A stretch of 64,000 nt of DNA from an uncultured bacterium (GTDB taxonomy: Bacteria; Electryoneota; Electryoneia; Electryoneales; Electryoneaceae). Location of the stretch: assembly GCA_964538455.1 (NCBI GenBank), contig CAZIDZ010000003.1, positions 129,832 to 193,831 of the forward strand, read 5' to 3'. The position numbers were made by a program, and so were the translations under genes. Below the pieces are notes generated by a model that did no database searches, was not told the DNA's origin, and saw only the letters and a list, made by a program, of their open reading frames with translations. Numbering within the stretch: position 1 is the stretch's first letter; each line of letters opens with the position of its first letter. This document shows positions 11,095 through 37,703 of this stretch, piece after piece.

Positions 11095-11098
11095 CCGG

Positions 11099-19818: not shown

Positions 19819-20835
19819 ATGCGCGTCACCAACCAGATGAAACGCAACCAGCTTCTGATCGACCTGAATCGGCTTCAGAACGACGTCTTCGTCTCGCAGC
19901 AGGTCCTGACCACTGGCACCGAGGTTGCCAAGCCTTCGGACAACCCGTCCGATGCGCGAAGGATCATGCTGCTCCAGAACTCGAGCAGCCGACGCGATCA
20001 GTACCTCCAGAACATTTCCGACGGCGTCGCGAGGATGAGTTACTCCGAAATCCAGACGCAGTACGCCCAGGACCTGCTCGTGGAAGCCCGCACAATTGCG
20101 CTGACCGCCTCCAACGGCGCCACCACGGACAGCGACCGCGCGTCCATGGCCGAGCGCATCGACGGCATGATTTCCGAACTGCTCTCGATCGCTAACAGCG
20201 CGCACGAAGACCAGTACATCTTCGGTGGCTTCAACACCCAGGACCCGCCCTATCAAGCGATCTTCGACCCCACCACCAACGATGTCATCGGGGTCCAGGA
20301 TCAGCCGCAGAACATGGACGGCGAGGTTTACCGGACCACCGCAGACGGCCAGCAGGTGCGCATCAACGTTCCCGGAAAAAACCTGTTCATGACCGGCACA
20401 ACCGGGGATTCGGGAGACATGTTCCAGATCCTCATTGATCTGCGCGATGCACTCCGGGACGGCGTCGATAATGACGAGCTCCAACAGAAGCAGCTCGATC
20501 CGCTCGATCCAAGCTACGATCCTCTGGCGACCTGGTCGCCCGCCCAGTACGACTCGCTGACGACGATTCAGCAGTCCCTGCAGCGGCTGGATGACGCCGC
20601 GGAAACGGCGAGGAACGTTATCACGCGCATCGGCACCGACGTCCAGCGCCTCCAGGCCACCGAAAACCGGCACCAGGATGTCGCGGTCAAGGAGCAGGAG
20701 CACCTCGGCGACACCCAGGGTGCCGACCTGACCGAGTGGATTTCAAAATTCCAGATGCAGACCCTCGCTCTGCAGCAGGCGATCCAGGTGGGCAATACAG
20801 TCCTTCAGTCGTCATTCGTGAACTTCATGCAATAG
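19819..20835 (+). CDS. flgL: Flagellar hook-associated protein 3 FlgL
   Basis: MRVTNQM...DNPSDARRI is a flagellin-like N-domain. Its size and its position after flgK fit FlgL. Confidence 0.85.
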   Translation: MRVTNQMKRNQLLIDLNRLQNDVFVSQQVLTTGTEVAKPSDNPSDARRIMLLQNSSSRRDQYLQNISDGVARMSYSEIQTQYAQDLLVEARTIALTASNGATTDSDRASMAERIDGMISELLSIANSAHEDQYIFGGFNTQDPPYQAIFDPTTNDVIGVQDQPQNMDGEVYRTTADGQQVRINVPGKNLFMTGTTGDSGDMFQILIDLRDALRDGVDNDELQQKQLDPLDPSYDPLATWSPAQYDSLTTIQQSLQRLDDAAETARNVITRIGTDVQRLQATENRHQDVAVKEQEHLGDTQGADLTEWISKFQMQTLALQQAIQVGNTVLQSSFVNFMQ

Positions 20836-20845: not shown

Positions 20846-23800
20846 ATGCCGGACAAGCGTGACCTGAACCGAGACGCCGCTGAATTTGCTTCGCGTTTTA
20901 CGGAGAGCAGCCCGGAAGAGAGCTCCGGGGACAGCGTTCAAAATGTGCTCATCCTTGCCCACGCGATCCCCACGCTGGCGAGCATCGGAGAGAAAAAGCG
21001 GGCTACGGACGCCGCGTTGAAGCTGCTCCGGATGCGCGACGATCGCGGTGGCTGGGATGACCCCTTACCCACGGTGATCGCTCTGGAAGCGTTCGTCGCC
21101 CTCCGGCTGCGTGGAATGGACCTGGACGATGGCCCGCAGGCTGTCGAGTACGCCGTCCGTTTTCTCCGCGATTCACGCCCGCTGGAGCTGCTCGAGCATG
21201 AGCTTCGCCTCGCGCGCAGCCTCGTTCTCGCTGGGTTGGCAAGGCAGGACGCGGCATTGATCGACGCCGGACTGCTCCGCGCACGATCGGCGCTCGAAAA
21301 AGAGCCGCGCTGGTCCCGCGACCTCGATATCGCCCTGCACGGCCTGCTCGCGGTCGCCGACCTGGTTACGATCACAAAGGACTCCACGACCGAGCAGCTG
21401 ATCTCGAGGCTGCTCGCTGAACACCACCTCGATCAGCCGGAACCGGAAGGGATCGAGGCGCAATCGGTGGCGGTGCTCGCCCGCGCGGGAACCGTGCTCG
21501 AAAAACTGGGCAGGCGCGACGCGGCGGTGGCCATGTACAAAAGAGCCGTGGAAAGCGCCGATGCCGCTTCCCTTGACACCGCTTCGCTCAAGTTCCGGGT
21601 GGAGTTGGGGGTGCGCATCTTCGGTGAGCCCGGTGATCAAGGCGGCGCGGGCGAAATCCCCGCGGGCGGCGAACAACCGGACCAAACGGAGCAGCAGACA
21701 GCGGAGCTGAAACCGGTGAGGTATGACGAGCTGCCTGCGGAGGCGACGTTCAATCGCTCCTCGGTCAGTGCGGTCATTCTCCAGAACGGACCCGCTGAAT
21801 CGGTGATCCAGACCCTGGAAGACCTCGCCGCGCAAACCGAACTGCCGGAGCAGATCGTCATCCTCTGGACCTCTCCCTCGTCACGCGCGCAGCTCCCCGA
21901 CCTGCCCACCGATCTCGCCGAGATTCACGGCGCCTTTGGATGGGGTGAATCCCCCTGGAGACTGGCGTTCCAGGTGGCACGGGCCGACTGGGTCTGGATG
22001 ATCCCCTCCGGCGTGCGCATCCTGCCGGACACCCTGATGGCGCTGAAACAGTCCGGCGGCCGCAAGCAGGCCATCTGCCTCTCGAAAAAAGAAGGCGGCC
22101 TCGACAAGGCCTTCGCTGGTCTCGTCGCGGAACCCACCCTCGCTGCGGAACGGTGCCTGATCAGGAGAGACGTTGCAGCTCACCTGCGTACTCCCCGGGC
22201 GAATGGGAGTTTCTGGGATATTGCGGCGTCCGTGGGAGAAAGGGAAGACTGGCGCGAGGTCGTGGAGAATGGCGAAGTGGGCATTCAGCCGGTCGAACAG
22301 GGTCTCGAATCCCTGCTCGCCGCCGTTCACTCCCTCGCCGGCCACTACCGGCTCTTCCCGGTGGACGGTCCCGAGCAGCGAAAACTGCGCCACGACAGCG
22401 CCGCGCGGTTGCGTGACGAACTCTACCGCGCCTGCCAGGAATGGGAACAGCCTCTCGTTTCGGTGATTCTCGCAGGCTCCACGTCCGGCGGGTCGCTGGA
22501 AAAATCCTTCAGTTCGCTGCTGCGCAACACTCAGGAAATCCCCTTTGAGGTAATCGCGATCCTGCCCGCCGGGGTGGACCTTTCCTTGCGGAATGCGATG
22601 CTCGACGCCGGGGTGCTCATCGTCCCCGGTTCCGAGATCCCGACCGCGGATCTCAACCGCGCCGCCGCCAAGGCGAAGGGACAGATGCTGGTGATCCTCG
22701 AAGCCGGAAGCGAGCCGGAAGAGGGGTGGCTGCAGGCGATGATGGCCGCCGCGTTCGACGAACCAAACGCCGGAATCGTCGGCGGCCTGGTGCAAAGCCC
22801 GGCGATGACCATCCTTCACGCCGGGATTGCCTTCGACGACAGAGCGAATCCGATTTACCTCCACCAGGGCGCGCCGCTCGTCCTCAGCCATATCCATCGC
22901 CGCAGGGCATACCAGGCGGTGGGAGGGGGGATCGTCCTGGCCTCCAGACCGCTTTGGGAGCTGCTTCGCGGACTCGATGAGGGATTCGACGACGCCGTGG
23001 AAAACGCCCTGATCGATTTCTGCCTGCGCGCCCGCGAGAAGGATGTTCGAGTCATCTATGAACCGAAGGCAAAAGCCACCCATCACGTCTCGCAGCCATC
23101 CGCCCCAGAAGCGAACCGGCATTTCATCAAGAAATGGCGGGATCGGGTCGTTCCCGACGTCGAATTGTACGCCCGGATGGACGGCTACCGCGCGGAATCC
23201 AGGGAGCGAAGAATCGTCCTGGTTCCCATCGGACCCACGCTCAAAGCAAACGGGGAGGAGGCCATGAGCAGCTCCTCAACTTCGACACCGTCCCATGTCA
23301 TCAAGGCCGATTCGTCGGACAACGATCTGGCGTCCCTGCTCACCCGTGCTGAAACGCTGATGCGTGACGGGCGTTATGACATCGCCGAGGAGGCCTTGGT
23401 ACAGGGGCAGCACCAGGTGAACGGAAATGTGGGCGCCCGGGTGATCTACTGGACGCTGCTAGGCGACAGCAAATTCCGGCTGAACAAGACCGAAGACGCC
23501 TACGATTGCTACAAGAAGGCCGTGAAGGACGATCCGAGTGCGGAACGCGCCTGGATCGGAATCGCTACCTATCACCTGGTCAAGGGCGAACTCGAGAAAG
23601 CGGAAGACATATTCCGCCGCGTAATCTCGCTCAACGATTCGAGCACTCGCGGCTACCTCGGGCTGGGCAACGTCTATCTCCGCCGCGGCCAGCCCGGTGA
23701 CGCGCTCCCCAGCTTCGTCGAAGCCTCCCGCCTCGATCCCGGCTACCGTCCGACGGTTGTCGGCCTCGTCGCCGCCGCCGTCCAGGCGGAACAGATGCAG

Positions 23801-24004
23801 GAGGCGCTGACCCCGTTGCAGCAGTACCTGCAAATTCATCCCGAGGACAACGAGGCTCGTTTCCACTACGCCGCGATCCTGTTCGGCAACCAGGACAACG
23901 CGCACGCGAAAGAAGAAGCGATGAGGGTGCTCCGGGTGAAACCCGATCACCAGGGAGCGCGCGAACTGCTCGACAACCTGTCCCGGAACAGGGATGCATC
24001 CTGA
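20846..24004 (+). CDS. Large multidomain protein: N-terminal helical-repeat region, two GT-A (family 2-like) glycosyltransferase domains, C-terminal TPR repeats
   Basis: The GT2-like cores are VSAVILQNG.. and PLVSVILAGS..DDAVENALIDFCLRAREKDVRVIYEP. The C-terminal TPRs follow WTLLGDSKFRLNKTEDAYDCYKKAVKDDP. Its 10 nt gap to flgL is the basis for the block being co-transcribed with flgKL. Confidence 0.75.
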   Translation: MPDKRDLNRDAAEFASRFTESSPEESSGDSVQNVLILAHAIPTLASIGEKKRATDAALKLLRMRDDRGGWDDPLPTVIALEAFVALRLRGMDLDDGPQAVEYAVRFLRDSRPLELLEHELRLARSLVLAGLARQDAALIDAGLLRARSALEKEPRWSRDLDIALHGLLAVADLVTITKDSTTEQLISRLLAEHHLDQPEPEGIEAQSVAVLARAGTVLEKLGRRDAAVAMYKRAVESADAASLDTASLKFRVELGVRIFGEPGDQGGAGEIPAGGEQPDQTEQQTAELKPVRYDELPAEATFNRSSVSAVILQNGPAESVIQTLEDLAAQTELPEQIVILWTSPSSRAQLPDLPTDLAEIHGAFGWGESPWRLAFQVARADWVWMIPSGVRILPDTLMALKQSGGRKQAICLSKKEGGLDKAFAGLVAEPTLAAERCLIRRDVAAHLRTPRANGSFWDIAASVGEREDWREVVENGEVGIQPVEQGLESLLAAVHSLAGHYRLFPVDGPEQRKLRHDSAARLRDELYRACQEWEQPLVSVILAGSTSGGSLEKSFSSLLRNTQEIPFEVIAILPAGVDLSLRNAMLDAGVLIVPGSEIPTADLNRAAAKAKGQMLVILEAGSEPEEGWLQAMMAAAFDEPNAGIVGGLVQSPAMTILHAGIAFDDRANPIYLHQGAPLVLSHIHRRRAYQAVGGGIVLASRPLWELLRGLDEGFDDAVENALIDFCLRAREKDVRVIYEPKAKATHHVSQPSAPEANRHFIKKWRDRVVPDVELYARMDGYRAESRERRIVLVPIGPTLKANGEEAMSSSSTSTPSHVIKADSSDNDLASLLTRAETLMRDGRYDIAEEALVQGQHQVNGNVGARVIYWTLLGDSKFRLNKTEDAYDCYKKAVKDDPSAERAWIGIATYHLVKGELEKAEDIFRRVISLNDSSTRGYLGLGNVYLRRGQPGDALPSFVEASRLDPGYRPTVVGLVAAAVQAEQMQEALTPLQQYLQIHPEDNEARFHYAAILFGNQDNAHAKEEAMRVLRVKPDHQGARELLDNLSRNRDAS

Positions 24005-24031
24005 CCGCCTGTCTTGCGAAAGGAGGGCAGG

Positions 24032-25474
24032 ATGACAGGCACCCGTAAAATTGGCGTCGTCCAACTCGCCCGGTTCGGCGACCTGGTCCAGACCACACCG
24101 TTCCTCCAGCGACTCCGCGAACAGGAACCGGGTGCCAGTATCTCGATCATCGTTGATCGGCGAGTCGAAGCTGTCGCCAACCTGCTCGATGACGTGGACG
24201 AGGTTATCGGCGTCGATCTCGCCGGGATTCCCGCTCACCTGACCGGGACCATCCTCGCCGATTACGAAAACCTGCGCGCCTGGGTCAAATCCTGGCGGCG
24301 GGATACGGATTACGACCGGCTGATCCTGCTGAACCACGGGGCGATTCCCGAAGCCGTCGCGTCATTTCTCGGAGCTGAACGCCGCGAGGGCCCGGGACGC
24401 GGTTCCGCCTTCGACCGGCCGCACCGCCTGCTTCGGGCCGCTCTCTCAAACAGGGCATTCATTCCGCTCCATCTCAGCGAGGTTTGGGCGGCGTACGGTC
24501 CTCGAAAATTCCCCGTCCCAGCCCCGAAAATAAAGCCCGTAAAGTCCGGCACAACCTTTGCATTTCTAGATGGAAAAGGGCATGTAAGAGATAATAAAAA
24601 CAAGGTATTTGCGGTCAATTTGGGGGCGGGTGCGGCAGGAAGGCGAATGTCCACGGAAAACCTTGCCGCTCTCGTCCGAACGCTGGTCAATGGCAACCCG
24701 TATAGGCTGGTCGCAGTCGGTACGGATGACGACAGGCAAACCGCCGCCCGGCTGATGCAATCCGTACCGCTGAATAATCGCAATCGTGTAATCGATCTTA
24801 CTGGAAATACGACACTTGAACAACTGACGGGCGTGCTCGAGGCGGTGGACGTCCTGATTTCAGCGGACACGGGCACGTTGCAGCTTGCGGCGGCTGCGGG
24901 AACGGCTTCGGTTGGCCTCTTCTTTGCCAACGCCAACCCAATAGAAACAGGAGCTTATTCCCCCGGCGCCGTGGCTGTTGTCCGCCGCGACACCCTGCGT
25001 CCCGGACCGCAGCCGTCGGCCGGCGACATGGTGTTGGCGGCGAAAGTCGCGACCAGGCTGGTTCAGGGGCAACCCTTGGAGGATCTGGAAGATGAAAGCG
25101 ACACCTGTTTTGTGCTGGTGGCCCGATCTGCACCTGTGGGTGTCGAGTACGAACCCCTGCGACCCGGCTCAAAAGGGAATCTGGGGCAGGGCGGACGATG
25201 GCTTCCTCTGCTCAGGCAGTTCCTCTGGGCGGGAGATCGGATCGGCGAGACGGTTCCGGGCAGCCGCAAAGCCTGGACCGATCTCTTCGGTAGTGAGGAC
25301 GCCCTCCGCCTGAGGGATCTTCACGATCAGATCGTGCAGAACGGGGGAAAACAGCTTGAATCGTGGGATGAGGAAACCCGCTGGCTCGCCCACATCGTCG
25401 CGGAGTTTCCCAATGAGACCGCACTCTGGACAGCTCAGATGCTGGCGAGCAAAGCCGGGAGGATTCACGCATGA
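24032..25474 (+). CDS. GT9-family (ADP-heptose heptosyltransferase-like) glycosyltransferase
   Basis: The N-terminus IGVVQLARFGDLVQTTPFLQRL is the RxGDxV hallmark of Glyco_transf_9. There is a Shine-Dalgarno (AAGGAGGG) before ATG 24032. Confidence 0.7.
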   Translation: MTGTRKIGVVQLARFGDLVQTTPFLQRLREQEPGASISIIVDRRVEAVANLLDDVDEVIGVDLAGIPAHLTGTILADYENLRAWVKSWRRDTDYDRLILLNHGAIPEAVASFLGAERREGPGRGSAFDRPHRLLRAALSNRAFIPLHLSEVWAAYGPRKFPVPAPKIKPVKSGTTFAFLDGKGHVRDNKNKVFAVNLGAGAAGRRMSTENLAALVRTLVNGNPYRLVAVGTDDDRQTAARLMQSVPLNNRNRVIDLTGNTTLEQLTGVLEAVDVLISADTGTLQLAAAAGTASVGLFFANANPIETGAYSPGAVAVVRRDTLRPGPQPSAGDMVLAAKVATRLVQGQPLEDLEDESDTCFVLVARSAPVGVEYEPLRPGSKGNLGQGGRWLPLLRQFLWAGDRIGETVPGSRKAWTDLFGSEDALRLRDLHDQIVQNGGKQLESWDEETRWLAHIVAEFPNETALWTAQMLASKAGRIHA

Positions 25475-25776
25475 GTGAAATGAACCTGGACACGGAGGTG
25501 GCGGCTGCTGCGGAAAGCAGCCTCGGCCGTCCAGACAGCGGTGTGAGACGTGTGACGACGACCCCGTGGGCCGTGTTCGTCCACGCCTCGCCGGTCTACA
25601 TCACGAGCGATCAACCGTCCCGTCCTCGCCGTGGGCGTCCCGCGTCCCATCGAAATGTCGCGCACAATCGCCGCGGGATGCGGTTGCCCGATGATTACCC
25701 CTACGCGAATCGCCGTTGGAGCGAACGACTCCGTGTGCTGCGCGCGGTTCGTCACGATGCGGGAGAACTGTCATGA
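25471..25776 (+). CDS. Possible small basic protein, translationally coupled on both ends
   Basis: Its ATG overlaps the upstream stop (ATGA), and its TGA overlaps the downstream ATG (ATGA). It is Arg/Pro-rich with no motif, so it could instead be a frame artefact in a 300 bp spacer. Confidence 0.25.
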   Translation: MSEMNLDTEVAAAAESSLGRPDSGVRRVTTTPWAVFVHASPVYITSDQPSRPRRGRPASHRNVAHNRRGMRLPDDYPYANRRWSERLRVLRAVRHDAGELS

Positions 25777-27392
25777 ATCTGCTGGCGCTCAACGACACGT
25801 TTTTCGGCGATTCGCTCAACCGCCGCGACCTCTCCATCCTCCGCGTGGGTCCGGGACCCGATAACGACATCGTCATCGATCCCGGGGAAGAGGATCTTCG
25901 CGACGTGCTCGAACGTGCCGGATTCCGTCCCGATAGAATCCTGCAGGTCGACAGCATCGACGAGCGCGTTTTCTTCAAGGGACTCGACGAAATCGAAGCA
26001 CCGCGTGCGTTCTACGCCATTGACGGCCCGATCAACGGGTTCTGGCAGCTTCCCTGGGCGCACAACTTCGACCGCGTCTGGATCGATCAGAAGGATTCTT
26101 TCGACCGTATGGCGGAGAACGGGATCGCCTGGGCAGAATGGCTGCCGCTCGCGGCGGATGAGAATTTGTATCACCCCCCAACGCCTGCCGCAGAGCGCGA
26201 CCTCGACGTCGTCTTCGTGGGAACCGTCGATCCGGAGCGCCGTCCGAAACGGTCCGCGATTCTCTACCGGCTCGAACAAGTGGCGAACCTGACCGTCGTC
26301 AACGGCGACGGCAAGCGTTCCGTCCCCGCCGGGGAGGTTGCGGATATCTACCGCCGCGCGAAACTCGTCGTCAACGAACTGCTCTTCGACGGCGTCAACC
26401 TGCGCACCTTTGAAGCAATGGCCTGTGGTGCGGTGGTGATGACAGAGGAGAATCGTGGCGAGCAGGATCTCTTCGCGGATCTTGGCGCGCTGCAGACCTA
26501 CAACGCGAAAAACCTGGAGACCGTCGTCGCCCGTTTGCTCGCCGATCCCCGCGAACGGACGCGCATTTCCGAGAGTGGGGCCGAGGTCATTCGTGAAAGC
26601 CATCTTGTCGCGCACAGGGCGCGCAACCTGCTCAACCAGTTGGACGAGCTGAAACCTCGCCCCGGACGTGACACCGTTCCTTCGAAAATGCACGCGATGT
26701 GGGGCGTTTGGCAGGCCGGGCTCAAGTGGCAGACATTCAGGTCCACCGCGAAACAGGCGCAGGAGTACCTCGCCGCGCACCTCAACGATATCCCGATCGA
26801 CCGGAAGATCGAGCTGTTCGAAGCGACAGGAAACGGTCCGCAGGCGATGCACCTCCTTTTCGACCAATTCAAGGAAAACCGCCTCCCGGATCGGATGCTG
26901 CCGGTGCTCGCCTCCCTCGCCTTGGCGCAGGGCAGCAACGACCTGGCGGGGGATGTGCTCGGCGTGAAAAACGCCACCGCCTCCGACCTGCATGTCGCGA
27001 TCGCCAACCGTCTGCTTCATGGCGGCAGGGACCTCTCGCCCGGATTCAATCGCACCGCCGGACCGGTCAGCGCCTGGAACGCCTTCGAACATTACCAGCA
27101 CGCGTTCACCTTGGACGAGGAAAATCTCGCCGCCCTGGAAGGCATGGACAGGATTCTGGAGAAGCACAACGCATCGGAAATCTCCATGCCGCTCTGGCAG
27201 AAGTGGCACGCTCGCCATCCGCGTGATCCCGAGGCCATCCGCCGCTTCATCAACCGGGCGCGCAACGGCTATTTCAACGTGCCCACGGAATCGCTCGAAG
27301 GGAGGGGTGCGGAATACCCTTTTTCGGCAGTGTCGGCGCGTTCAACCGACCGGACGCCGTCCAGTGGCCAATCCGCAAGGAGTCGAGCGTGA
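25773..27392 (+). CDS. CgeB/DUF3880-like glycosyltransferase domain protein with helical C-terminal region
   Basis: VVFVGTVDPERRP...NLRTFEAMACGAVVMTE...SHLVAHRARNLL matches the Glyco_trans_1_2 (CgeB) pattern. There is a Shine-Dalgarno (GGAGA) before ATG 25773. Confidence 0.65.
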   Translation: MNLLALNDTFFGDSLNRRDLSILRVGPGPDNDIVIDPGEEDLRDVLERAGFRPDRILQVDSIDERVFFKGLDEIEAPRAFYAIDGPINGFWQLPWAHNFDRVWIDQKDSFDRMAENGIAWAEWLPLAADENLYHPPTPAAERDLDVVFVGTVDPERRPKRSAILYRLEQVANLTVVNGDGKRSVPAGEVADIYRRAKLVVNELLFDGVNLRTFEAMACGAVVMTEENRGEQDLFADLGALQTYNAKNLETVVARLLADPRERTRISESGAEVIRESHLVAHRARNLLNQLDELKPRPGRDTVPSKMHAMWGVWQAGLKWQTFRSTAKQAQEYLAAHLNDIPIDRKIELFEATGNGPQAMHLLFDQFKENRLPDRMLPVLASLALAQGSNDLAGDVLGVKNATASDLHVAIANRLLHGGRDLSPGFNRTAGPVSAWNAFEHYQHAFTLDEENLAALEGMDRILEKHNASEISMPLWQKWHARHPRDPEAIRRFINRARNGYFNVPTESLEGRGAEYPFSAVSARSTDRTPSSGQSARSRA

Positions 27393-29236
27393 ACGGATCT
27401 GACGGCATCCTTGAAAGAAACCTCGCTGTGTTGCGCAAACGCGGGCAGGGTGATCTGGCGAACGCCCTGGCCGCTTTGCCCGTCTCTGAAAGGGTACAGG
27501 CGTCTATCGCGCGCTCGGGCGATCCTACGTTGAAAGTCAACGGTCAAAACATTCACAGCCCCTACGATCCGAAACGGGAGGCGGCGGCGCTCGCGGAAAA
27601 ACTGCTCGGCGGCATCGATCCGGCGAAACCGGTTCTGTTCGTCGGGGGTGGCTGCGGCTACGTCCTGGAGCAGGGAAAAGACTGCCTGCAAAACACGCAG
27701 ATCGTCCTTGCCGAACCGGTTCCCGAGGTTCTCGCCGCGGCCATCCGTTCGCGTGATATGAGCGAAATCTTCTCCCTTGCCAACCTCGCTTTCGGCGATT
27801 CGATCCCCTCGCTTGCGGACAATATCCGCTCGCTGCTTGGGGACCGCGCCGAGCAGGCTCAGGTCGTCGTTCTTCCTTCGGCACGATCGTCGGCTCCCCG
27901 AGAGGTGGACGCCCTGCTGAGCGCGCTTTCCACGAAAACGGGAAACGCCGACCTCGGAAACCTGCGCATCCTGCTCGTTGGACCTGTGTACGGGGGCAGT
28001 CTTCCGGTCACCCGGTATGTGCACAGCGCGCTGAAAAAGCTCGGCCACACCGTCGAATGGCTCGATTTCTCTCCGCTTCATGAAAGCGTACGGTTTTTCG
28101 ACGGTATCACTCGGAAGCAGGAGCACCGCAAGGCGTTGCAGGGGCAGTACACCCACCTGATGGCTCAGACCGTCCTTGCGCGCGCTGAGCTCTTTCAGCC
28201 ACAGATCGTCTTTTTCATGGCGCAATCCCCCGGCGCTCCGAATGTCCTGGAGGAGCTGCGCAATGCGGGGATCCCGACCGCTTTCTGGTTCGTCGAGGAC
28301 GGCAAGCTCTTCGATTACGGCATGAAGATGGCTCCCTATTATGACGTTTTCTTCCACATCCAGGGGGCTTCCTTTACCGAACAATTGAAGCAGGCCGGAG
28401 CCCGCCATGTCCATTACCTCCCGCTCGCCGCCGACCCGGACGTTCACAAACCGCTGCAGCTGACCGATGACGAACAGGCCGAATACGGCAGCGACATCAG
28501 CCACGTCGGCGCCGGGTACCCCAACCGCCGCAGATTCTTCCCCTCGCTGCTCGACTTCAACTTCAAGCTCTGGGGCAGCGACTGGGAGCAGCCCGGTCCG
28601 TTGGGCAAGGTGCTGCAGCGCGGGGGCGAACGGATCTCCACCGAGGATACCGTGAAAATCTTCAACGCGTCGAAGGTGAACCTCAACCTGCACTCCTCGA
28701 CTTTCACCGACGGCGTGAACCCGGACGGCGATTTCGTCAATCCGAGAACCTTCGAATTGGCCGCCTGCGGAGCGTTCCAGCTCGTCGACGAACGCAGCCT
28801 GCTTCCTTCGCTGTTCAGCGTGGATAGCGAGATGGTCACGTTCCTCGGTGTCTGGGACTGTCGAGAGAAAATCGCCCATTACCTGGAGCACCCGGAAGAG
28901 GCGAAAGCGATCGCCGACGCCGCGAGGAACAGGGTGTTGCAGCAGCATACCTATGCCCATCGGATGCAGGAAGCGCTCTCGGTGATCGCGGCGGCCTGCC
29001 CCATCCCTGAAAACCGGGTGATGCGGAACACGGTGGCTTCGCTGGTCGCACAGGCGGGGAAAAACCGCGAACTCGCGGAAATCTTCGGACAGATGGGGCA
29101 GCCGGAGGACGAGTTGACGTTGTCGGAGATCGCGGATACGATCCGCCACGGACAGGGCAAAATGAATGAGAGCGAAGCGCTGCTGCTGCTGATGGATGAA
29201 TTCCACACGTGGGCGAAGGAAAAGGGAGTCGCATGA
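27389..29236 (+). CDS. Fusion protein: N-terminal Maf/DUF115-like (motility accessory factor-like) domain + C-terminal CgeB-like glycosyltransferase domain
   Basis: The N-terminus has KPVLFVGGGCGYVLEQ (DUF115-like Gly-rich loop). The C-terminus has RTFELAACGAFQLVDE...QQHTYAHRMQEAL. The GTG start overlaps the upstream stop. Confidence 0.6.
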   Translation: MNGSDGILERNLAVLRKRGQGDLANALAALPVSERVQASIARSGDPTLKVNGQNIHSPYDPKREAAALAEKLLGGIDPAKPVLFVGGGCGYVLEQGKDCLQNTQIVLAEPVPEVLAAAIRSRDMSEIFSLANLAFGDSIPSLADNIRSLLGDRAEQAQVVVLPSARSSAPREVDALLSALSTKTGNADLGNLRILLVGPVYGGSLPVTRYVHSALKKLGHTVEWLDFSPLHESVRFFDGITRKQEHRKALQGQYTHLMAQTVLARAELFQPQIVFFMAQSPGAPNVLEELRNAGIPTAFWFVEDGKLFDYGMKMAPYYDVFFHIQGASFTEQLKQAGARHVHYLPLAADPDVHKPLQLTDDEQAEYGSDISHVGAGYPNRRRFFPSLLDFNFKLWGSDWEQPGPLGKVLQRGGERISTEDTVKIFNASKVNLNLHSSTFTDGVNPDGDFVNPRTFELAACGAFQLVDERSLLPSLFSVDSEMVTFLGVWDCREKIAHYLEHPEEAKAIADAARNRVLQQHTYAHRMQEALSVIAAACPIPENRVMRNTVASLVAQAGKNRELAEIFGQMGQPEDELTLSEIADTIRHGQGKMNESEALLLLMDEFHTWAKEKGVA

Positions 29237-30810
29237 ACGTGCTCCTGATCAATCTGGCGCGCATCGGGGATCTCGTGCAGGTGTCGCCTGTTTCCCAGGG
29301 CCTCATGGATGAGCTGGGAGCGCGGGTGACGTTGCTCGCCCCGGAGAAGTACGCGGAGTTCGCGCGCCGACTGTCAGGAGTCGACGAAGTCATCGGCGTG
29401 GATGATTCAGACCTCAATCGTGAAGGTATCGTCCTGTCGTCGCTGATACACTCCGATCCGAAGCTGAGTCAGGCGATCGCAGACCTGCGAGCGCATTCCT
29501 TCGACCTCGCGATCAACCTTACCCACGATGAGCTCTCCACCGCGCTGGCGAGCGCGATCGGGGCGAAAGCTGTGCGCGGCCGTTTCGGACAACCCGGACA
29601 TATCCAGGTGAGGGGGGATGCCTTCCGCTATTTCTACACCGTGCTCGAGCATCGCATGATGAACGGCATCAACCTTTGCGACATCTACCGGATCGGCGCG
29701 GGAATCGCCAACGGCCGCCGTCCGGTCTCGATGGCGCCTGTGCCAGAGGATCGGCGGGCAATACGCGATCGAATCGGCGAAACATCAAGGCCCGTGATCC
29801 TGCTGCACCCCGGCGCAAACCATCCTCACCGCAGGTGGCCGGTGTCGAAGTACGGAGCGCTGGCGAAGATGCTGCACGCGGAGGGCGCGGAGGTGCTCGT
29901 GCTCGCCGGTCCGGCCGAGCGTGATCTCGCTGGCGCTGTCGTGCGTTTATCCAACGGTTCTGCGCGCGCGATGGATAAACCCGTACCTGTTGAACTGCTG
30001 CCCGCGCTGTTTGCGGAGGTAAACCTCGTCGTCACCAACGACACCGGTCCGCTCCACATCGCCGCGTCTGTCGGCACGCCAACCGTGTCGCTGTTCCTCG
30101 CCATGGCGCGCCCCCAGGACACAGGCCCCTGTTCGCCCGAACATCTGATCCTGGAGACGCTCGAAAGCTGTCATCCCTGCCCGGAGCACAGCGCATGCGA
30201 TTCTCCCGTGTGTGGTGATTCGATCCCGGTAGAGGTGGTGTTCGCCGCCGTCCGGGCGAGATTGTGCGAATCGTTTCCCGCTGAATACGTCTTCAAACCC
30301 TTCGGCGGACGCTTCCGGGCGCTCGTCACTCGCTGGGGCGCGAACGGGATGATCGAGCTCGAAGAAATCTACCGTTCCGTTCCCATACCGGATGGCTTCG
30401 ATGTCGGCTCCGCATGGAAACCGGTCTGGCTCTCGCTGTTCGCGGGGGATAGCCCTTCCGGGGAGGTGTTGAAACAGCTCCGGGGGACTTTCAGCATCTC
30501 GGAGCAGCGATCGATGCTCGCGGTGGTCACCCTCTGCCGGGGAATTCTCGCTCGTCTAAACGGGGAACCGCTGCAGGACGAACAAGGCAATCCGCTCAGC
30601 GTGGCCGTGCTCGAGGATTTCGCTCTTCAGGAGGAGCAGCGTTCGCAATCGGCGAAAACCCTGCTGCTGCCCTTCCGGTTGGAGCGCGAAGCGCTCTACG
30701 CCCGGGGGATCGATGCCGTGCGAAACGAAGCGGAGAGCCGCTTTTCCCGCTGGATCGGCACCCTCGCCGCGCTCAGCCCGGACGCTGTCCGGGAGGAGGT
30801 GGCGGCATGA
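29233..30810 (+). CDS. GT9-family heptosyltransferase-like protein with Cys4 cluster
   Basis: MNVLLINLARIGDLVQVSPV and TNDTGPLHIAASVGTPTVSLF are GT9 motifs. The Cys cluster is CHPCPEHSACDSPVC. The ATGA overlaps the upstream gene. Confidence 0.7.
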   Translation: MNVLLINLARIGDLVQVSPVSQGLMDELGARVTLLAPEKYAEFARRLSGVDEVIGVDDSDLNREGIVLSSLIHSDPKLSQAIADLRAHSFDLAINLTHDELSTALASAIGAKAVRGRFGQPGHIQVRGDAFRYFYTVLEHRMMNGINLCDIYRIGAGIANGRRPVSMAPVPEDRRAIRDRIGETSRPVILLHPGANHPHRRWPVSKYGALAKMLHAEGAEVLVLAGPAERDLAGAVVRLSNGSARAMDKPVPVELLPALFAEVNLVVTNDTGPLHIAASVGTPTVSLFLAMARPQDTGPCSPEHLILETLESCHPCPEHSACDSPVCGDSIPVEVVFAAVRARLCESFPAEYVFKPFGGRFRALVTRWGANGMIELEEIYRSVPIPDGFDVGSAWKPVWLSLFAGDSPSGEVLKQLRGTFSISEQRSMLAVVTLCRGILARLNGEPLQDEQGNPLSVAVLEDFALQEEQRSQSAKTLLLPFRLEREALYARGIDAVRNEAESRFSRWIGTLAALSPDAVREEVAA

Positions 30811-33761
30811 AGCGGCCCGTCGCGATCCTCAACATGACACGCATGGGCGACCTGTTGATGACCGGTCCGATGCTGCACCGTCTCCGCGAACAGTGGCCCG
30901 GGCACCCTCTCCACCTGATCGCGGTGGACGGATTTATGCCGATCGCGCAGGGAATGGACGTCGACAGGGTAATCTCACTCGATTACGACAGGTTGACCAC
31001 GCTGGCGGTGTCCGCGGGTGAAGCACGCCGCGTCAACCTGATCGACGCACTCGGCGAATTCCGTGACGTGATTCGCGAACTGCAATCCGTTGACTACGAG
31101 GCGATTTACAATGTCAGCCACACGCGGATCAGCGCGATCATTGCGACCCTGCTTAACGGCGAGGTTCGCGGGGGCCTGCACCTCGACAGCCAAGGGTTCA
31201 GGGTCATCGCGGGACGTTGGGCTCGCAACTGGTTCGCAGGGAATCTCAATCGCGGAGTGAACCCCTTCCACCTCGTCGACATGAACATCGGAATCGCCGG
31301 CGGCGGCGTCTTTCCGGCCGATCAACGGAAGCTTCATTACCACGTTCCCGGCGACGCGCGTGAGGAAGCCGCGTCCATCCTGGAATCCTTAGGGATCGGC
31401 GATCAAACTCCGTTCATCGTTGTCCAGGTGGGGGCCTCGACGGAGGATAAACGTTGGGAGCCGGAAAAATTCGGCCAGGCCGCGGCTCAGATTCTCAAGG
31501 CTGCCGGTGTGCGCCCGGTCTTCGTCGGCACGCACTCCGAACGCGAATGGGCCGGGACCGCCGCCCGGATCGTGGGCGGTGAGGCGGCCGTGCTAGCGGG
31601 GCAGACCACGCTTCCCGTGTTGGCGGCTGTGCTCGAGCGCAGTTCGCTGCTGGTCACCAACGATACGGGCACGATGCACCTCGCTCAGGCGGTGGGCACC
31701 CGCTCGCTCGACATTACCCTCGGCGCGGCGCTCTCGGACGAGACCGGCCCCTACGGAAGCGGAAGCGTGATCCTCGAACCCGACATTGCCTGCTTCCCCT
31801 GCGATTTCAACGCCGTTTGCCCGCATCACAACTGCCACGGCTTGATCACCCCGGATCTGGTCGCGAGCGTTGCCTGCGCCATGCTCGAAGGCCAGCCACT
31901 CGAGCAGGTGATCGGCCGCCTCGATACCCGCGGCGCCCACATCTGGGTAACCGGATTCGACGCCGATGGATGGTGGAGAAAGTATCCGCTCGCGGAAAAA
32001 ACGCTGCAAGCGAAGGACGTGATCCGTGAATGCTACCGGGAAATTCTGAAAGCGGATCTCGAGCCGGACCTGCGTCCAAACGGGGTCGATTCGCAGGCGG
32101 TGTTGCAGTCCCTGGGGTCATACGACTCGGCCAGTGCAGACAGTACTGCCGCGCTGCAGCCGGACACTGAACTTGGAACCGAACTGCTCGCTCTGATACG
32201 CAGGGCCGCCGGCTTGGCTGAACGCATCGTGCGAATTTCCCCGGACGAACCCGGGGCCGTGGAAAAGCTGGCTGATTACGGGCAGGAACTGGCGCAGCTC
32301 GACGAAAGCATTCTCCAGTCGTTCCTGCACAGCACGCTCTGGGCGCCCGTGTTGGCGCTGTTCCGCTTCGATCTCGAAAACCTGCCGGAAGACGGTCTTG
32401 AGGCACAGTCCCGGCGTACTCTCGAGTTGCACGAACGGCTTGAAACCCTTGTTCAGTCCCTGCTGAGCCTCCTCGCTGACGTGGCGCGGTCTGTCCCGTC
32501 GAACGGTTCACACGGACGGGGCCGCGACCGCGTAATTACGAAGACGGGAACAGCTCACGACAGCTACGACAGCTTCCGACGGCCGCGAATGCGCGGCGAG
32601 CGGCTGAACATCGTGCTCCCGACCAGCGGCTACTATTTGCAGCAGGAGATCGCGACGGCGTTGACACGACTCGGCCACCGCGTCCACCCGTTGCCGTTCG
32701 CCGGCAGGGAGGACGTCATCGAGCGGCTGTTGCTGCTCAGCCGCGACGCGGATCTGCTCGTCACCGTCAATCACCTCGGATTCGATCAGTTCGGCGAACT
32801 CGCGCATCTGCTGGATCGCATCGAACTGCCCTACATCTCCTGGTACGTTGACCGGCCCGCGTTCATCCTGCTCGATCACGCCATCGGTCCCGCGGAGAAC
32901 GCCCTGATCGCCACCTGGGAGCAGTCGACGATCGAGGAGATCCGGTCCTACGGATTCGAAAACGTGGTCTATCTGCCGCTGGCGACCGACGAAAAACGTT
33001 TTTCGCCCAAGACAGGCCAGTTTGACCCCGGTACGCCTCACTGGGTGGCGAATTCGATGGTTTTGCCGAGCCGCGAATGGCAGGAAAAAGCCTCCCTGTA
33101 CGACGGCGATCCCCTGCTCCAGAGAGCGGTTGCCTTGCAGCGGGCGGGGCGCCTTGAACCGGAGGCGGTGCTCGCGGCGGCGGCTTCGGCGGAAGGCGTT
33201 GAGCTTGACGACTGGGACAAACGCAGGAAATTGAACGCGGCGTCGGCGATTGCCCTGACCGCAACGCGCCAGTTGCGCCGCGATCTTGCCAGCGAAACTG
33301 CACCGCTGGGACTGCAGCTTCACGGGGATCAGGGGTGGGGCGAAATCGCACCCCGGGCGGCGCTCAACCCCCCGGTGGAATACCCCAGGGGCTTGGTCGA
33401 GGCCTATCGCAATTCGTTGCAGCTGAACGCCACCAGCTACCAGATGCCCACCGCCGTCAACCAGCGGGTGTTTGACGTTCCCGCGGCCGGCGGGGTGCTT
33501 GTCACCGATGCCCAGGAGGCGCTCGGCGAACTCTTCGATCATGAGACGGAATGTATTGTTTATACGGAACCTGGTGAAATCGCCGAGAGCATTCGTTGGG
33601 TGCGCAAAAACCCTCAGGATGCGCAGCGGCGGTCGATCCGGGCACGTCAGCGGATACTCAACGAACACACATACACGCACAGAATGCGAATGCTGCTTGA
33701 ACGGGCTCGCCTGCACGGAGTTCACGCTTCTGTGTCTACAGCGGGAGGAGCGGTACGATGA
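30807..33761 (+). CDS. Fusion protein: N-terminal GT9 heptosyltransferase-like domain (with Cys cluster) + C-terminal CgeB-like glycosyltransferase domain
   Basis: VAILNMTRMGDLLMTGPMLHRL and TNDTGTMHLAQAVGTRSL are GT9 motifs. The Cys cluster is CFPCDFNAVCPHHNC. The C-terminus has QRVFDVPAAGGVLVTD...NEHTYTHRMRMLLE. Confidence 0.7.
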   Translation: MKRPVAILNMTRMGDLLMTGPMLHRLREQWPGHPLHLIAVDGFMPIAQGMDVDRVISLDYDRLTTLAVSAGEARRVNLIDALGEFRDVIRELQSVDYEAIYNVSHTRISAIIATLLNGEVRGGLHLDSQGFRVIAGRWARNWFAGNLNRGVNPFHLVDMNIGIAGGGVFPADQRKLHYHVPGDAREEAASILESLGIGDQTPFIVVQVGASTEDKRWEPEKFGQAAAQILKAAGVRPVFVGTHSEREWAGTAARIVGGEAAVLAGQTTLPVLAAVLERSSLLVTNDTGTMHLAQAVGTRSLDITLGAALSDETGPYGSGSVILEPDIACFPCDFNAVCPHHNCHGLITPDLVASVACAMLEGQPLEQVIGRLDTRGAHIWVTGFDADGWWRKYPLAEKTLQAKDVIRECYREILKADLEPDLRPNGVDSQAVLQSLGSYDSASADSTAALQPDTELGTELLALIRRAAGLAERIVRISPDEPGAVEKLADYGQELAQLDESILQSFLHSTLWAPVLALFRFDLENLPEDGLEAQSRRTLELHERLETLVQSLLSLLADVARSVPSNGSHGRGRDRVITKTGTAHDSYDSFRRPRMRGERLNIVLPTSGYYLQQEIATALTRLGHRVHPLPFAGREDVIERLLLLSRDADLLVTVNHLGFDQFGELAHLLDRIELPYISWYVDRPAFILLDHAIGPAENALIATWEQSTIEEIRSYGFENVVYLPLATDEKRFSPKTGQFDPGTPHWVANSMVLPSREWQEKASLYDGDPLLQRAVALQRAGRLEPEAVLAAAASAEGVELDDWDKRRKLNAASAIALTATRQLRRDLASETAPLGLQLHGDQGWGEIAPRAALNPPVEYPRGLVEAYRNSLQLNATSYQMPTAVNQRVFDVPAAGGVLVTDAQEALGELFDHETECIVYTEPGEIAESIRWVRKNPQDAQRRSIRARQRILNEHTYTHRMRMLLERARLHGVHASVSTAGGAVR

Positions 33762-34366
33762 ATGTGATTGTGGATGGCAAACCGGTCGAGCTGCCTGCGG
33801 AGGGGCAGAAGACGATCGGCGACGTCGTCGGGTCCGTGTCCAAGGATCTGGACGCGAAACGGCGGATCATCAAGGTGGTCGTCGACGGCCAGGACATCAC
33901 CGGTCAGGCGGAGGCCCATCTGCAGAGCAGGAGCGGCGGCGAAAAGGTCGAGATCACGACGGGCCTGGCCAGCGAACTGGCGCTCGAAACTCTGGACGGG
34001 ATCCGGGATTTCCACGGTGCGCTCGAGTTGGAGTTGAACCGCACCGCGGACGAATTCCGGATGGGTAACAACCAGAAATCCAACGAGATGTTCGCCCGCT
34101 GCCTGGATGGATTGCAGATCCTGCTGCGCACAACGGTTTCCGTCGCCAACCTGCTGCAGGTCGACAGCGCCAAGGTGAAAGCGGGATCCGGCAACATGAA
34201 TGCGGTCACCGAAAACATCGCCCGCGTCCTCCAGGAGTTGATCGAGGCGCAGATCAATCGGGATGCGATTCTGATCGCCGATCTGATCGAGTACGAACTT
34301 AAACCTCTGTTGGACGATTGGCAGGACGCCCGAGAACAGCTCCGGCTGATCGGAAAGGCGGCCTGA
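33758..34366 (+). CDS. Hypothetical protein (beta-rich N-terminus + helical C-terminus), last-but-one gene before flagellin promoter
   Basis: The ATGA overlaps the upstream gene. I saw no known motif. Confidence 0.5.
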   Translation: MNVIVDGKPVELPAEGQKTIGDVVGSVSKDLDAKRRIIKVVVDGQDITGQAEAHLQSRSGGEKVEITTGLASELALETLDGIRDFHGALELELNRTADEFRMGNNQKSNEMFARCLDGLQILLRTTVSVANLLQVDSAKVKAGSGNMNAVTENIARVLQELIEAQINRDAILIADLIEYELKPLLDDWQDAREQLRLIGKAA

Positions 34367-34779
34367 TGCTGCGCGACGCCCCACAGGACAACGAGCAGAT
34401 TCTGAGGGAATTGCTTTCCGTCACGGAAGATACCGTGGCGGCGGCGAGGATCGATCACCGTTCAGCGCTGGATCCGCTGCTCGATCGACGCGGGAAGCTG
34501 CTCGCGGTGTTTTGGGGTTTCCCTCCCGATCAGCCGCTGCCGCTGTTCGACGACAGCAGGGTGGGGAGCACTCCGCCAAGCCTTTCAGGAAGCGAAAAAC
34601 GGCTGTTGAAACGCGTTATATCTTTGGATAACAAAGTCTTAAAGTATCTGAACGCCAACAGGGAACGGCTCTTGAACGAGTTTCATTCCCTGCGGCGTGG
34701 CGAACGGGCGATCTCCGGCCTTCGCGATCTCCTGCGAGATGGCAGAACGGGGGGAAAAAGGGTAGACATGAGAGGGTAA
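34366..34779 (+). CDS. Hypothetical helical protein (possible flagellin-associated chaperone/regulator)
   Basis: The TGATG overlaps the upstream gene. It is a 137-aa helical protein with no family recognised. Confidence 0.45.
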   Translation: MLRDAPQDNEQILRELLSVTEDTVAAARIDHRSALDPLLDRRGKLLAVFWGFPPDQPLPLFDDSRVGSTPPSLSGSEKRLLKRVISLDNKVLKYLNANRERLLNEFHSLRRGERAISGLRDLLRDGRTGGKRVDMRG

Positions 34780-34890
34780 GTACCTGTTCTTTCACAAGCT
34801 GCAGACGGACTTGCGAGAATCAACCAATGTCTTGGTTGCTGCGTGCTTTTAACGTTCGGGTTTTGTTGAAACGAACCTGAAAGTCTTGCT

Positions 34891-34917
34891 CAAGGTTTAC
34901 TCCTGGCCTGCCGATAG
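34891..34917 (+). promoter_or_regulatory. Sigma-28 (FliA) class III promoter for flagellin
   Basis: cAAgGTTT-N11-GCCGATAg compares with TAAAGTTT-N11-GCCGATAA. It is followed by the Shine-Dalgarno AAGGAGG 8 nt before the fliC ATG. Confidence 0.6.
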
Positions 34918-34967
34918 AGGGACTAGCAAGGGTTTCCTCTTCGGGACATAGTGCAAGGAGGTGCAGC

Positions 34968-35801
34968 ATGAGTACTCGCATCAACCACAACATCCTCGCA
35001 CTCACCGCCCAAAGGAATATCTACCGAACCCAGACAGATTTGGACCGCACTCTCACGCGGCTCTCCTCGGGTTTGCGGATCAACTATTCCTGGGACGACC
35101 CCGCGGGGTTGGCGGTGAGCGAGAGATTCCGTGCCCAAATCGCCTCAATGGTCGAAGCGGAACGGAACGCAAATTACGACGTCAACCTGCTGGCGACTGC
35201 AGAAGGGTCGTTGCAGACCATTGACAACACACTGACGCGTATGCGCGCGCTGGCGATCCAGGCGTCCAACGGCGCCCTGGCATCCCAGGATCGGGCTTCG
35301 CTGGACGAGGAATTCCAGCAGCTCGCTTCAGAGATCACGCGTATCGCGCACACAACCAATTACAACGGTCTTTACCTGCTGAGTGGGGACTATTCCACGG
35401 CTGGAATCAAGTTCCACATCGGCACGTACAACGTGAGTGGGCAGGATTACTACTACGTCACGTTGAACGACATGAGCGCCAGCGCGCTCGGGTTGACTGG
35501 CCTGAATCTGTTGAACACTGTCAGCGCCCAGAACTCGATCGCTTCGCTGGATGCGGCAATCAACACCAAGGATACTGAGCGGACACGCATCGGTTCGCAG
35601 GTTTCTCGTCTGCAGAACACGATCACGAACCTGCAAGTCGCCAAGGAAAATGCGTCTTCGTCCGAGTCGACCATCCGTGACGCGGATATCGCCGAAGAGA
35701 TGAGTGCTTTCGTGCGATCCCAGTTGCTGATGCAGACTGGCATCTCGATGCTTTCCCAGGCGAACATGGTGCCGCAAATCGTTGCGGGTTTGGTCGGGTA
35801 A
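34968..35801 (+). CDS. fliC: Flagellin
   Basis: The N-terminus MSTRINHNILALTAQRNIYRTQTDLDRTLTRLSSGLRINYSWDDPAGLAVSERF and the C-terminus AFVRSQLLMQTGISMLSQANMVPQIVAGLV are flagellin-like. At 277 aa the variable D2/D3 domain is minimal. Confidence 0.9.
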   Translation: MSTRINHNILALTAQRNIYRTQTDLDRTLTRLSSGLRINYSWDDPAGLAVSERFRAQIASMVEAERNANYDVNLLATAEGSLQTIDNTLTRMRALAIQASNGALASQDRASLDEEFQQLASEITRIAHTTNYNGLYLLSGDYSTAGIKFHIGTYNVSGQDYYYVTLNDMSASALGLTGLNLLNTVSAQNSIASLDAAINTKDTERTRIGSQVSRLQNTITNLQVAKENASSSESTIRDADIAEEMSAFVRSQLLMQTGISMLSQANMVPQIVAGLVG

Positions 35802-37634: not shown

Positions 37635-37703
37635 TAGACTGAGTCATACCACCGCCCTTGACGGCGGTGTTCAAGGCCGAGTACACTTGAAGAGGTGTGT
37701 GCC

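Follow-up and report, generated by a model that had tools for sequence, protein, structure and literature searches.

What do nine genes contribute to a flagellum when they stand between the hook-filament junction gene flgL and the flagellin gene fliC? This question is raised by a 64,000-nucleotide stretch of DNA from an uncultured bacterium of the Electryoneaceae (contig CAZIDZ010000003.1, positions 129,832 to 193,831; hereafter the window, in whose coordinates all positions are given), in which nine plus-strand open reading frames (ORFs), g1 to g9, fill the interval 20846-34779 between flgL (19819-20835) and fliC (34968-35801), both also on the plus strand. A first-pass annotation had described these nine ORFs, lying between flgL and a sigma-28 promoter of fliC, as a flagellum-associated set of glycosyltransferases (GTs), and our follow-up agrees with it in that genomes only 35-55% identical carry the same cassette in the flgL-fliC interval, and that its core recurs beside flagellar genes. 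We think it rather likely that the block encodes a cytoplasmic multi-enzyme system for O-glycosylation of flagellin within the flagellar cluster, and the operon is real and conserved, is probably functional in flagellin modification, and uses a set of enzymes that appears undescribed.

With start codons picked by their Shine-Dalgarno context, g1 begins at ATG 20846, 10 nt past the flgL stop codon, with which its GGAG Shine-Dalgarno sequence overlaps. From 25471 to 34366 all seven junctions are start/stop overlaps, namely ATGA at g2/g3, g3/g4, g5/g6, g6/g7 and g7/g8, GTGA at g4/g5 and TGATG at g8/g9; outside this run, g1 and g2 are separated by a 27-nt gap with no overlap and an AGGAGG precedes ATG 24032. 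Both the spacing and the overlaps are as the first-pass annotation had them. As overlaps are frequent elsewhere in the flagellar cluster of the window (approximately six or seven of its 14 other junctions), the run of seven is tight rather than extraordinary, and it is kept in the orthologs of L001, which are approximately 43% identical (L-numbers, L001 to L084, denote related loci fetched for comparison, 81 of which enter our counts). A scan of the g1-g9 block found no convincing plus-strand terminator. With only 10 nt between flgL and g1, seven overlapping junctions and no sign of a terminator inside the block, g1-g9 probably share the flgKL transcript, as had been proposed, and their translational coupling to one another would yield the proteins in fixed proportions.

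The flagellin gene has a start signal of its own. A sigma-28-type promoter (CAAGGTTT-N11-GCCGATAG, approximately 34884-34917, plus strand, with its -10 box GCCGATA at 34910-34916) begins 78 nt 5' of the fliC ATG, comparable sites lie 5' of fliC in five related loci (L005, L006, L007, L083 and L084), and the distance to fliC is nearly equal in three of these five (76-80 nt). The heptamer GCCGATA occurs 14 times in the window against 6.1 +/- 2.3 copies expected from shuffles. The block had also been called an island, a term that its composition does not bear out: its GC content of 0.61-0.64 is barely above the 0.59-0.62 of the flanking flagellar genes, and as orthologs also occupy the same position, we discarded recent transfer as an explanation.

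Three of the nine products carry a GT9 domain and three carry a CgeB-like domain, in line with the first-pass count. Pfam Glyco_transf_9 (PF01075) places g2 (24032-25474, 480 aa; E 1.5e-12, 47.8 bits), g6 (29233-30810, 525 aa; E 1.3e-26, 93.8 bits) and g7 (30807-33761, 984 aa; E 2.1e-20, 73.5 bits) in GT9 against a cut-off of 22 bits. When aligned with E. coli WaaC and WaaF, residues G12, D13, D261 and G263 of WaaC are invariant in g2, g6, g7 and their relatives; Asp13 and Asp261 have a catalytic role in WaaC. Neither GT9 membership nor these aspartates fix the donor sugar, and neither gmhA nor hldE is present in the window. Two of the three enzymes have a further feature in common: a CxxCx5Cx4C motif, which we refer to as Cys4, follows the C-lobe of g6 (Cys313, 316, 322 and 327) and precedes a helical C-terminal extension, and recurs in g7 (Cys329, 332, 338 and 343). 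Motif and extension are also found in the g6/g7 relatives of L009 and L082 and are absent from WaaC, WaaF and g2, the last of which has a single cysteine. In g7 the Cys4-bearing GT9 (approximately residues 1-560) is followed by a CgeB-like GT-B domain (approximately residues 590-984; DUF3880 E 1.4e-8, Glyco_trans_1_2 E 1.1e-21), and since each half has a gene of its own, next to that of the other, in L007, L009, L014 and L084, g7 represents a fusion of two neighbouring enzymes, which speaks for their functional coupling. Full-length g7 fusions are rare, with only about 18 among 5.8 billion clusters, all of them from metagenome-assembled genomes (MAGs).

GT9 enzymes are best known as lipopolysaccharide (LPS) heptosyltransferases and CgeB-type enzymes act on spore surface glycan, which raises the possibility that the block does not modify protein and instead makes a glycan, lipid-linked or free, for example an extension of the LPS core or of its heptose, a flagellar sheath, or a matrix polysaccharide co-regulated with motility. 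All NCBIfam matches of the GT9 proteins are indeed to WaaC, WaaF and WaaQ, and a locus with Wzy, Wzz and flippase genes lies 10 kb downstream. Yet these matches reach only 39-68 bits against equivalog cut-offs of 135-569, so far below threshold that none of the three proteins belongs to those heptosyltransferase families; the block contains no membrane segment and no flippase, polymerase, priming transferase or ligase; and the downstream locus is found beyond dnaJ, trkH and serS, partly on the other strand and at a different GC content. Furthermore, LPS, capsule and nucleotide-sugar families are all missing from the 25 most common neighbour families of related loci (248 ORFs, 65 loci), such that an association with LPS or capsule loci, which the first-pass annotation had named beforehand as the result that would speak against flagellin, does not appear in the synteny survey. 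We consider a lipid-linked or free product distinctly unlikely. The downstream locus itself (45480-51178) encodes a GT2, a Wzy-like/O-antigen-ligase-like protein, Wzz and a Polysacc_synt_3 flippase, and its markedly low GC content (0.46-0.50 at 46-50 kb versus approximately 0.60 elsewhere) suggests a horizontally acquired surface-glycan cassette. A link between it and the g1-g9 block was considered and rejected because of the housekeeping genes between them and the difference in GC.

The CgeB-like enzymes are g4 (25773-27392, 539 aa), g5 (27389-29236, 615 aa) and g7. Glyco_trans_1_2 is detected in all three, with E-values of 6e-20, 3.7e-39 and 1.1e-21, respectively, and DUF3880 is detected in g5 (E 2.1e-14) and g7. 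Database annotators name the homologs of g5 and g7 'spore maturation protein CgeB'. In g4, which has no domain resembling the Maf N-terminus, a C-terminal extension of approximately 230 aa matches no family. By contrast, the first 185 or so residues of g5 form a Maf-type N-domain. The match of g5 itself to PF20157 (Maf_flag10_N) is below threshold (E 0.015), whereas its orthologs, at 29.6-41.4 bits, clear the cut-off of 23.5 and thus belong to this family, as do many of the more than 3000 g5 homolog clusters at 90% identity. A hidden Markov model (HMM) of g5 residues 1-190 also matches proteins in L026, L046, L075, L037 and L020 (E 1e-11 to 1e-21), and these are genuine Maf proteins by their PF01973 domain (E approximately 1e-33 to 1e-43; 2e-16 in L020). 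For those of L026, L046 and L075, PF01973 is matched at E approximately 1e-40 and the g5 N-domain HMM at E 1e-14 to 1e-21, and in each Maf protein the region matched directly precedes the catalytic domain.

What follows the N-domain in g5 differs from Maf. There is no match to PF01973 (MAF_flag10/MptE-like, DUF115), so g5 is not a catalytic Maf, and the Maf/DUF115 label given to it earlier holds for the N-domain and fails for DUF115. Its AlphaFold2 model (mean predicted local distance difference test score 91.9) places the N-domain ahead of a GT-B fold whose nearest structures are BshA, MshA, PglA and a mannosyltransferase (template modelling scores normalized to the target of 0.64-0.69), as expected of a GT4-like enzyme. 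As the GT-B part dominated this fold search, homology of the N-domain to Maf was established by HMM; a search of the PDB with the g5 sequence returned nothing useful. By its predicted domains and modelled fold, g5 is thus a chimera of a Maf N-domain and a GT4-like catalytic domain, and we regard it as the candidate protein-directed, initiating transferase. Larger fusions that involve g5-like or GT9/CgeB-like genes occur in Nitrospirota and Latescibacterota (approximately 1203-aa ORFs in L013, L017 and L019; L010 6300-9155; L008 7990-11562), including a 1203-aa protein with its Maf-N domain at approximately residue 606 and a 1190-aa fusion of GT9, Maf-N and CgeB; these are 'Rosetta-stone' links among the module enzymes.

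The first gene, g1 (20846-24004, 1052 aa), encodes a conserved N-terminal domain, two GT-A-like regions and an array of tetratricopeptide repeats (TPRs) at approximately residues 820-1050, with TPR families matched at E 1e-15 to 1e-19. It had been read as carrying two GT2 domains, a reading that does not survive: only one match to GT2 (PF00535) is obtained, it covers a fragment of the profile at 17.7-18.5 bits against a cut-off of 23.3 (17.7 bits for the match at issue) and hence does not make g1 a GT2, and Pfam recognizes the second GT-A-like stretch (approximately residues 330-480) neither here nor in any ortholog. The orthologous proteins of L001, L006 and L009 contain a strong GT2 domain (E 1e-25 to 1e-35), and donor-binding motifs are intact in these and in L014. 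In the window and in L004, the motifs SxxIPxYN, DNGS and NxD are replaced by SVILAGST, ILPAG and LEAGSE, and in L002 and L083 half of the GT2 domain is deleted. To judge from these replaced motifs, g1 probably serves without catalysis, as a TPR scaffold or adaptor with relic GT-A domains.

The state of g1 invites a different explanation for the block as a whole, in which the cassette has partly decayed in this lineage and several of its members are pseudoenzymes with structural or regulatory roles in filament assembly. The lost motifs of g1 in the window and L004, the half-deleted domain in L002 and L083, and the absence of g6 from L002, L003 and L083 would all fit such a course. However, the ORFs of g2 and g4-g8 are intact and share 35-78% identity with their orthologs, the catalytic Asp residues are conserved in all three GT9 domains, and the g5 and g7 families retain the invariant residues of the GT-B motifs. 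Partial decay is therefore very unlikely to account for the cassette.

Three small proteins complete the block. The 101-aa basic protein g3 (25471-25776) matches nothing in Pfam or NCBIfam and has orthologs of 45-67% identity that occupy its place in L001-L004 and L006. The other two had been left as unknowns, and both can now be placed. The first, g8 (33758-34366, 202 aa), belongs to TP0873_N/DUF8042, recent Pfam families for which we count 3031 representatives at 50% identity (E<=1e-3); its confident predicted model consists of a beta-grasp (residues 1-70) and a four-helix bundle (residues 71-201), and by analogy with GlfM of Shewanella, an 89-aa four-helix bundle linking Maf-2 to flagellin, it is a candidate adaptor between the transferases and flagellin. 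A literature search on TP0873 returned nothing. The second, g9 (34366-34779, 137 aa), is a FliT-like helical protein that scores 19.5 bits (E 0.0018) on Pfam FliT (PF05400), its ortholog in L084 reaching 26.6 bits (E 1.1e-5), both against a cut-off of 29.5; precomputed matches are labelled 'FliT (weak)'. Its sequence points to an export chaperone, and it probably belongs to the ordinary flagellar set.

Taken as a system for flagellin O-glycosylation, the block would act in the cytoplasm. None of the nine proteins has a signal peptide or hydrophobic segment (the maximum Kyte-Doolittle mean over 19 residues is at most 1.47), and all nine are predicted to be soluble. We propose, by analogy with FlmG, Maf-1 and GlfM-Maf-2, that unfolded or chaperone-free flagellin would be caught before export, for which the g1 TPR array, the Maf-type N-domain of g5 and g8, as a GlfM-like bridge, are the candidate capture elements. 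Either g5 or a Cys4-bearing GT9 could then place the first sugar on a Ser or Thr of the short central hairpin of flagellin, after which the other GT9 (inverting) and CgeB/GT4-like (retaining) enzymes would extend it to an oligosaccharide; g9 would take part as a regular FliT chaperone. The presumed acceptor, fliC, encodes a 277-aa protein (Pfam Flagellin_N 1.1e-38, Flagellin_C 5.3e-20), and the module-adjacent flagellins that we aligned are likewise minimal, at approximately 277-300 aa. As for the donors, the nine proteins match no nucleotide-sugar synthesis family in Pfam or NCBIfam, and such families are also missing from the 25 commonest neighbour families elsewhere, which upholds the earlier statement that no sugar-synthesis genes accompany the block. 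With no synthesis genes linked to it, the donors would come from housekeeping nucleotide-sugar pools, and ADP-heptose is no more than a possibility among them. What the analysis shows is the order of the genes, their domain content, the conserved catalytic residues of the GT9 domains, solubility, and the conserved association with flagellar genes; we infer what is modified, in which order the enzymes act, which proteins serve as adaptors and what the donors are.

The related loci show which company the cassette keeps elsewhere. In the 5.4-Mb genome of L001 the same nine genes, in unchanged order, lead from flgL to the gene for a 279-aa flagellin, the same cassette spans flgL to fliC in L004 and L006, and a version with a short g1 and no g6 does so in L002, L003 and L083; protein identity among these orthologous cassettes is 35-70%. 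A second arrangement in Calditrichota and LCP-89 (L007, L009 and L084) runs flgL, GT2+TPR, GT9, g5, GT9-Cys4, CgeB-like, g8 and fliC, with variations: L084 has no GT2+TPR gene and has a FliT-like gene before fliC, and L007 and L084 have a second GT9 gene before the Cys4 GT9. L014 shows a similar order as far as its contig extends. Relatives are MAGs labelled 'bacterium', Candidatus Electryonea, Calditrichaeota and LCP-89, and cultured bacteria that have at least part of the module include Desulfovibrio cuneatus DSM 11391 (L040), Fundidesulfovibrio agrisoli SG106 (L028) and Desulfovibrio sp. DV (L073). Beyond these, a core of CgeB-like, g5-like, GT9-Cys4 and DUF8042 genes is present in Nitrospirota, Nitrospinota, Desulfobacterota and Acidobacteriota, where the CgeB-like gene also carries a Maf-type N-domain and the core adjoins fliS, fliC/fliD, motAB/PilZ or a true maf. 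The core module also recurs beside flagellar genes in Calditrichota and Latescibacterota, a maf gene is immediately upstream of the g5-like gene in L026, L046 and L075, and in Desulfovibrionaceae (L021, L039 and L053) fliC-fliD-fliS directly follow a CgeB-like gene. Overall, filament or junction genes are found within the fetched 10 kb or less in 28 of the 81 related loci, and in 19 of the 34 that have a g5-like gene. SAM (S-adenosylmethionine) methyltransferases and an asparagine-synthase-like amidotransferase accompany the module in L082 (1-5108) and L005 (8967-10949), none of which is present in the window block; they hint that the glycan is further modified in those loci.

These neighbourhoods also bear on whether the substrate might be another cargo of the flagellar export apparatus, such as FlgK, FlgL, FliD or the hook, instead of or besides flagellin. 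Within the window, it is the flgKL transcript that the block joins, fliC having its own promoter, and in Nitrospirota the module is found by motAB and PilZ and not by fliC. The 122 ORFs near more distant CgeB/GT9 pairs include the hook genes flgD (4) and fliK (2) as well as FapA (2). Those near the g5-like genes, 126 ORFs in 29 loci, count in favour of the main reading and most often encode MotB, MotA, PilZ, response regulators, TPR proteins and other GTs, along with four MptE-like (Maf) members. Against such a shift of substrate, the genes that most often adjoin the core module across phyla are fliC, fliD and fliS, no proteins other than flagellin transferases are known to have the Maf N-domain, and the Desulfovibrionaceae gene directly precedes fliC. 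We regard another export cargo as unlikely and continue to favour flagellin.

Several observations weigh against a flagellin-glycosylation system of this kind. Glycosylation of this flagellin is a prediction from gene content, and there is no cultured carrier of the full cassette. It is also unusual for six or seven transferase domains to serve the very short exposed region of such a flagellin. A filament gene is absent from the fetched DNA of 53 of the 81 loci, some of which are on short contigs. At the level of individual proteins, the window copy of g5 reaches only E 0.015 on Maf_flag10_N; g1, the sole TPR protein, has a catalytic domain that by its motifs is decayed, so that its role is conjecture; and hhalign comparisons of g8 with alignments of FliS and of the FliT-like g9 give a probability of 0.1%. 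More tentatively still, and with rather more doubt than confidence, we suggest that the block belongs to a large class of flagellin glycosylation machinery that has yet to be described and is spread widely among anaerobic and uncultured phyla (Calditrichota, Latescibacterota, Nitrospirota, Nitrospinota, Desulfobacterota, Acidobacteriota and relatives). There, a Maf acceptor-recognition N-domain on a GT4-like domain, metal-finger GT9 enzymes and a DUF8042 adaptor of beta-grasp and four-helix bundle would build an oligosaccharide, possibly with heptose, on minimal (approximately 277-aa) flagellins from housekeeping sugar nucleotides.

How much of this is new depends on whether one looks at location and logic or at the enzymes. 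The interval 20846-34779 places GT genes between flgL and fliC inside the flagellar cluster, as in the Pseudomonas islands of P. aeruginosa PAK and P. syringae, where they sit between flgL and fliC/fliD. In the latter, fgt1 and fgt2 lie upstream of fliC in the flgL-fliD cluster and the viosamine genes form a separate island (PMC3927599), so that transferases sit beside fliC with sugar synthesis encoded elsewhere. Soluble transferases that attach an O-linked oligosaccharide to flagellin are a further likeness to the Pseudomonas islands, one which for our block is proposed from gene content. The difference is in the enzyme set, which in the block comprises three GT9 domains, three CgeB/GT4-like domains, a Maf N-domain and DUF8042. 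Enterobacterial flagellin islands differ in number as well as kind, with one to three GTs each, of families GT2, GT25 or GT41 (PMC4875605), compared to the six or seven transferase domains of the block. For the flag-2 regions of enterobacteria that are assigned to flagellin glycosylation, GT9 genes have likewise been predicted (PMC6993521); like ours these are GT9 genes inside a flagellar locus with a proposed role in flagellin glycosylation, and unlike ours they are single, computationally predicted genes, which we liken to g2, g6 and g7 by family only. In view of P. syringae fgt1/fgt2 and the flag-2 GT9 genes, the statement in the first-pass annotation that known islands always include sugar genes or a single TPR-GT enzyme was too strong.

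The Maf systems supply a parallel for individual components. Like Maf-2 with GlfM, the block combines a Maf N-terminal domain, in g5, with a small predicted helical-bundle protein, g8, encoded in cis, and in the three loci named above g5-like genes share an operon with genuine maf genes. In place of the PF01973 GT-A catalytic domain of Maf, however, g5 has a GT4-like GT-B domain, and no genes for pseudaminic acid (Pse), legionaminic acid (Leg) or CMP-sugars are linked to the block. Compared by description only, g8 differs from GlfM in its length (202 versus 89 aa) and its extra beta-grasp; by eye, an FR pair and a DxxE in its last helix resemble F24, R25, D77 and E80 of GlfM. GmaR of Listeria has a GT2 domain followed by TPRs, an order that g1, with its degenerate GT-A domain, resembles. 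With both GmaR and FlmG, g1 has in common a TPR array joined to a GT-like domain and encoded in the flagellar cluster. In FlmG of Caulobacter, an N-terminal TPR domain binds flagellin and a GT-B domain follows at the C-terminus (PMC7591256), whereas the TPRs of g1 come C-terminal to degenerate GT-A regions; g1 therefore does not have the FlmG architecture, and the earlier comparison of its TPR module to FlmG gives way to the GmaR-like order.

Protein-directed GT9-like GT-B enzymes have precedent in the bacterial autotransporter heptosyltransferases (TibC, AAH), which glycosylate protein and not LPS. TibC contains a four-cysteine iron finger near the end of its C-lobe (Cys339, 342, 358 and 370; PMC4358343), and g6 and g7 have four cysteines at a comparable position, with a different spacing (CxxCx5Cx4C) and with no such motif in g2. 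There is no sign in g6 or g7 of the N-terminal beta-barrel, dodecamer or heptose of TibC, and a phmmer search of the PDB with g7 (E<=0.01) matched only 3tov, a classical GT9, together with WaaF and WaaC, and not TibC. The CgeB/YkvP spore-surface enzymes share Glyco_trans_1_2 and DUF3880 with the block, which differs from them in belonging to flagellated, Gram-negative-type lineages with flagellar neighbours and no spore context. We found no literature linking CgeB/DUF3880 enzymes, Maf-N/GT4 chimeras or DUF8042 with flagellin. Overall, the location and logic of the block are already known from Pseudomonas, Maf/GlfM and FlmG, and its enzyme set appears undescribed; the claim that the system is not a described one thus holds for these enzyme families in the literature searched and fails for the concept.

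Flagellin glycosylation has been studied mostly in pathogens and mostly involves nonulosonic acids or rhamnose, and the known classes of flagellin transferase are Maf, FlmG, GmaR, Fgt and GT2/GT41. If our reading is correct, the module would add a further class with thousands of members and the Maf N-domain would be a portable module for acceptor recognition. GT9 enzymes would likewise act in protein glycosylation beyond the autotransporter heptosyltransferases, and TP0873_N and DUF8042, new Pfam families with no described function, would gain a candidate role. Since it would require no sugar pathway of its own, the cassette might also be of use to glyco-engineers working with E. coli.

The flagellar genes around the block form a plus-strand cluster that starts with flhA, flhF, flhG, a small ORF, fliA and a TPR/DUF6115 protein, and goes on through flgF, flgG, two ORFs where, by position alone, flgA and flgH would sit, and flgI to an SLT-type flgJ, flgN, flgK (18389-19801), flgL, g1-g9, fliC, fliD, fliS, a FlgM-like ORF and dnaJ. 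In the region of flgK and flgL, both hook-filament junction genes, Pfam detects FlgK_D1, Flg_bbr_C and Flagellin_N. Rfam and transfer RNA scans of the window were empty. The fliC leader (34920-34967) has no significant predicted structure (z = 1.24) and contains two CAAGG motifs that recall CsrA sites on flagellin mRNAs, AGCAAGGGU and UGCAAGGAGG, of which the latter overlaps the Shine-Dalgarno sequence; neither csrA nor fliW was noticed among the genes of the window. A plus-strand hairpin terminator lies 3' of fliC at approximately 35865-35913, followed by fliD, fliS and the FlgM-like ORF (35985-38591, plus strand; Pfam FliD_N/FliD_C and FliS). This last ORF (38103-38591) has an internal duplication, RRRVQENYYDQPEVIDKMAGGIAKAV and RRRSEEEFYDRPEVVDKTAEKLIEQI, which may be a duplicated anti-sigma-28 C-terminal motif, its orthologs having only a faint FlgM match. 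FlgJ (16981-17874) joins its rod-binding domain to an SLT lytic transglycosylase domain and not to a glucosaminidase of the enterobacterial type, as does its ortholog in L083, and the TPR/DUF6115 protein between fliA and flgF (11015-12814) is an uncharacterised protein of 599 aa with weak TPRs and a C-terminal DUF6115 match. Finally, 5' of flhA (19-3105) are two signalling genes, for a response-regulator/PAS/HATPase hybrid and for a response regulator with an HD-GYP-type HD_5 domain, and HD_5 and response-regulator genes recur near the module in other phyla.

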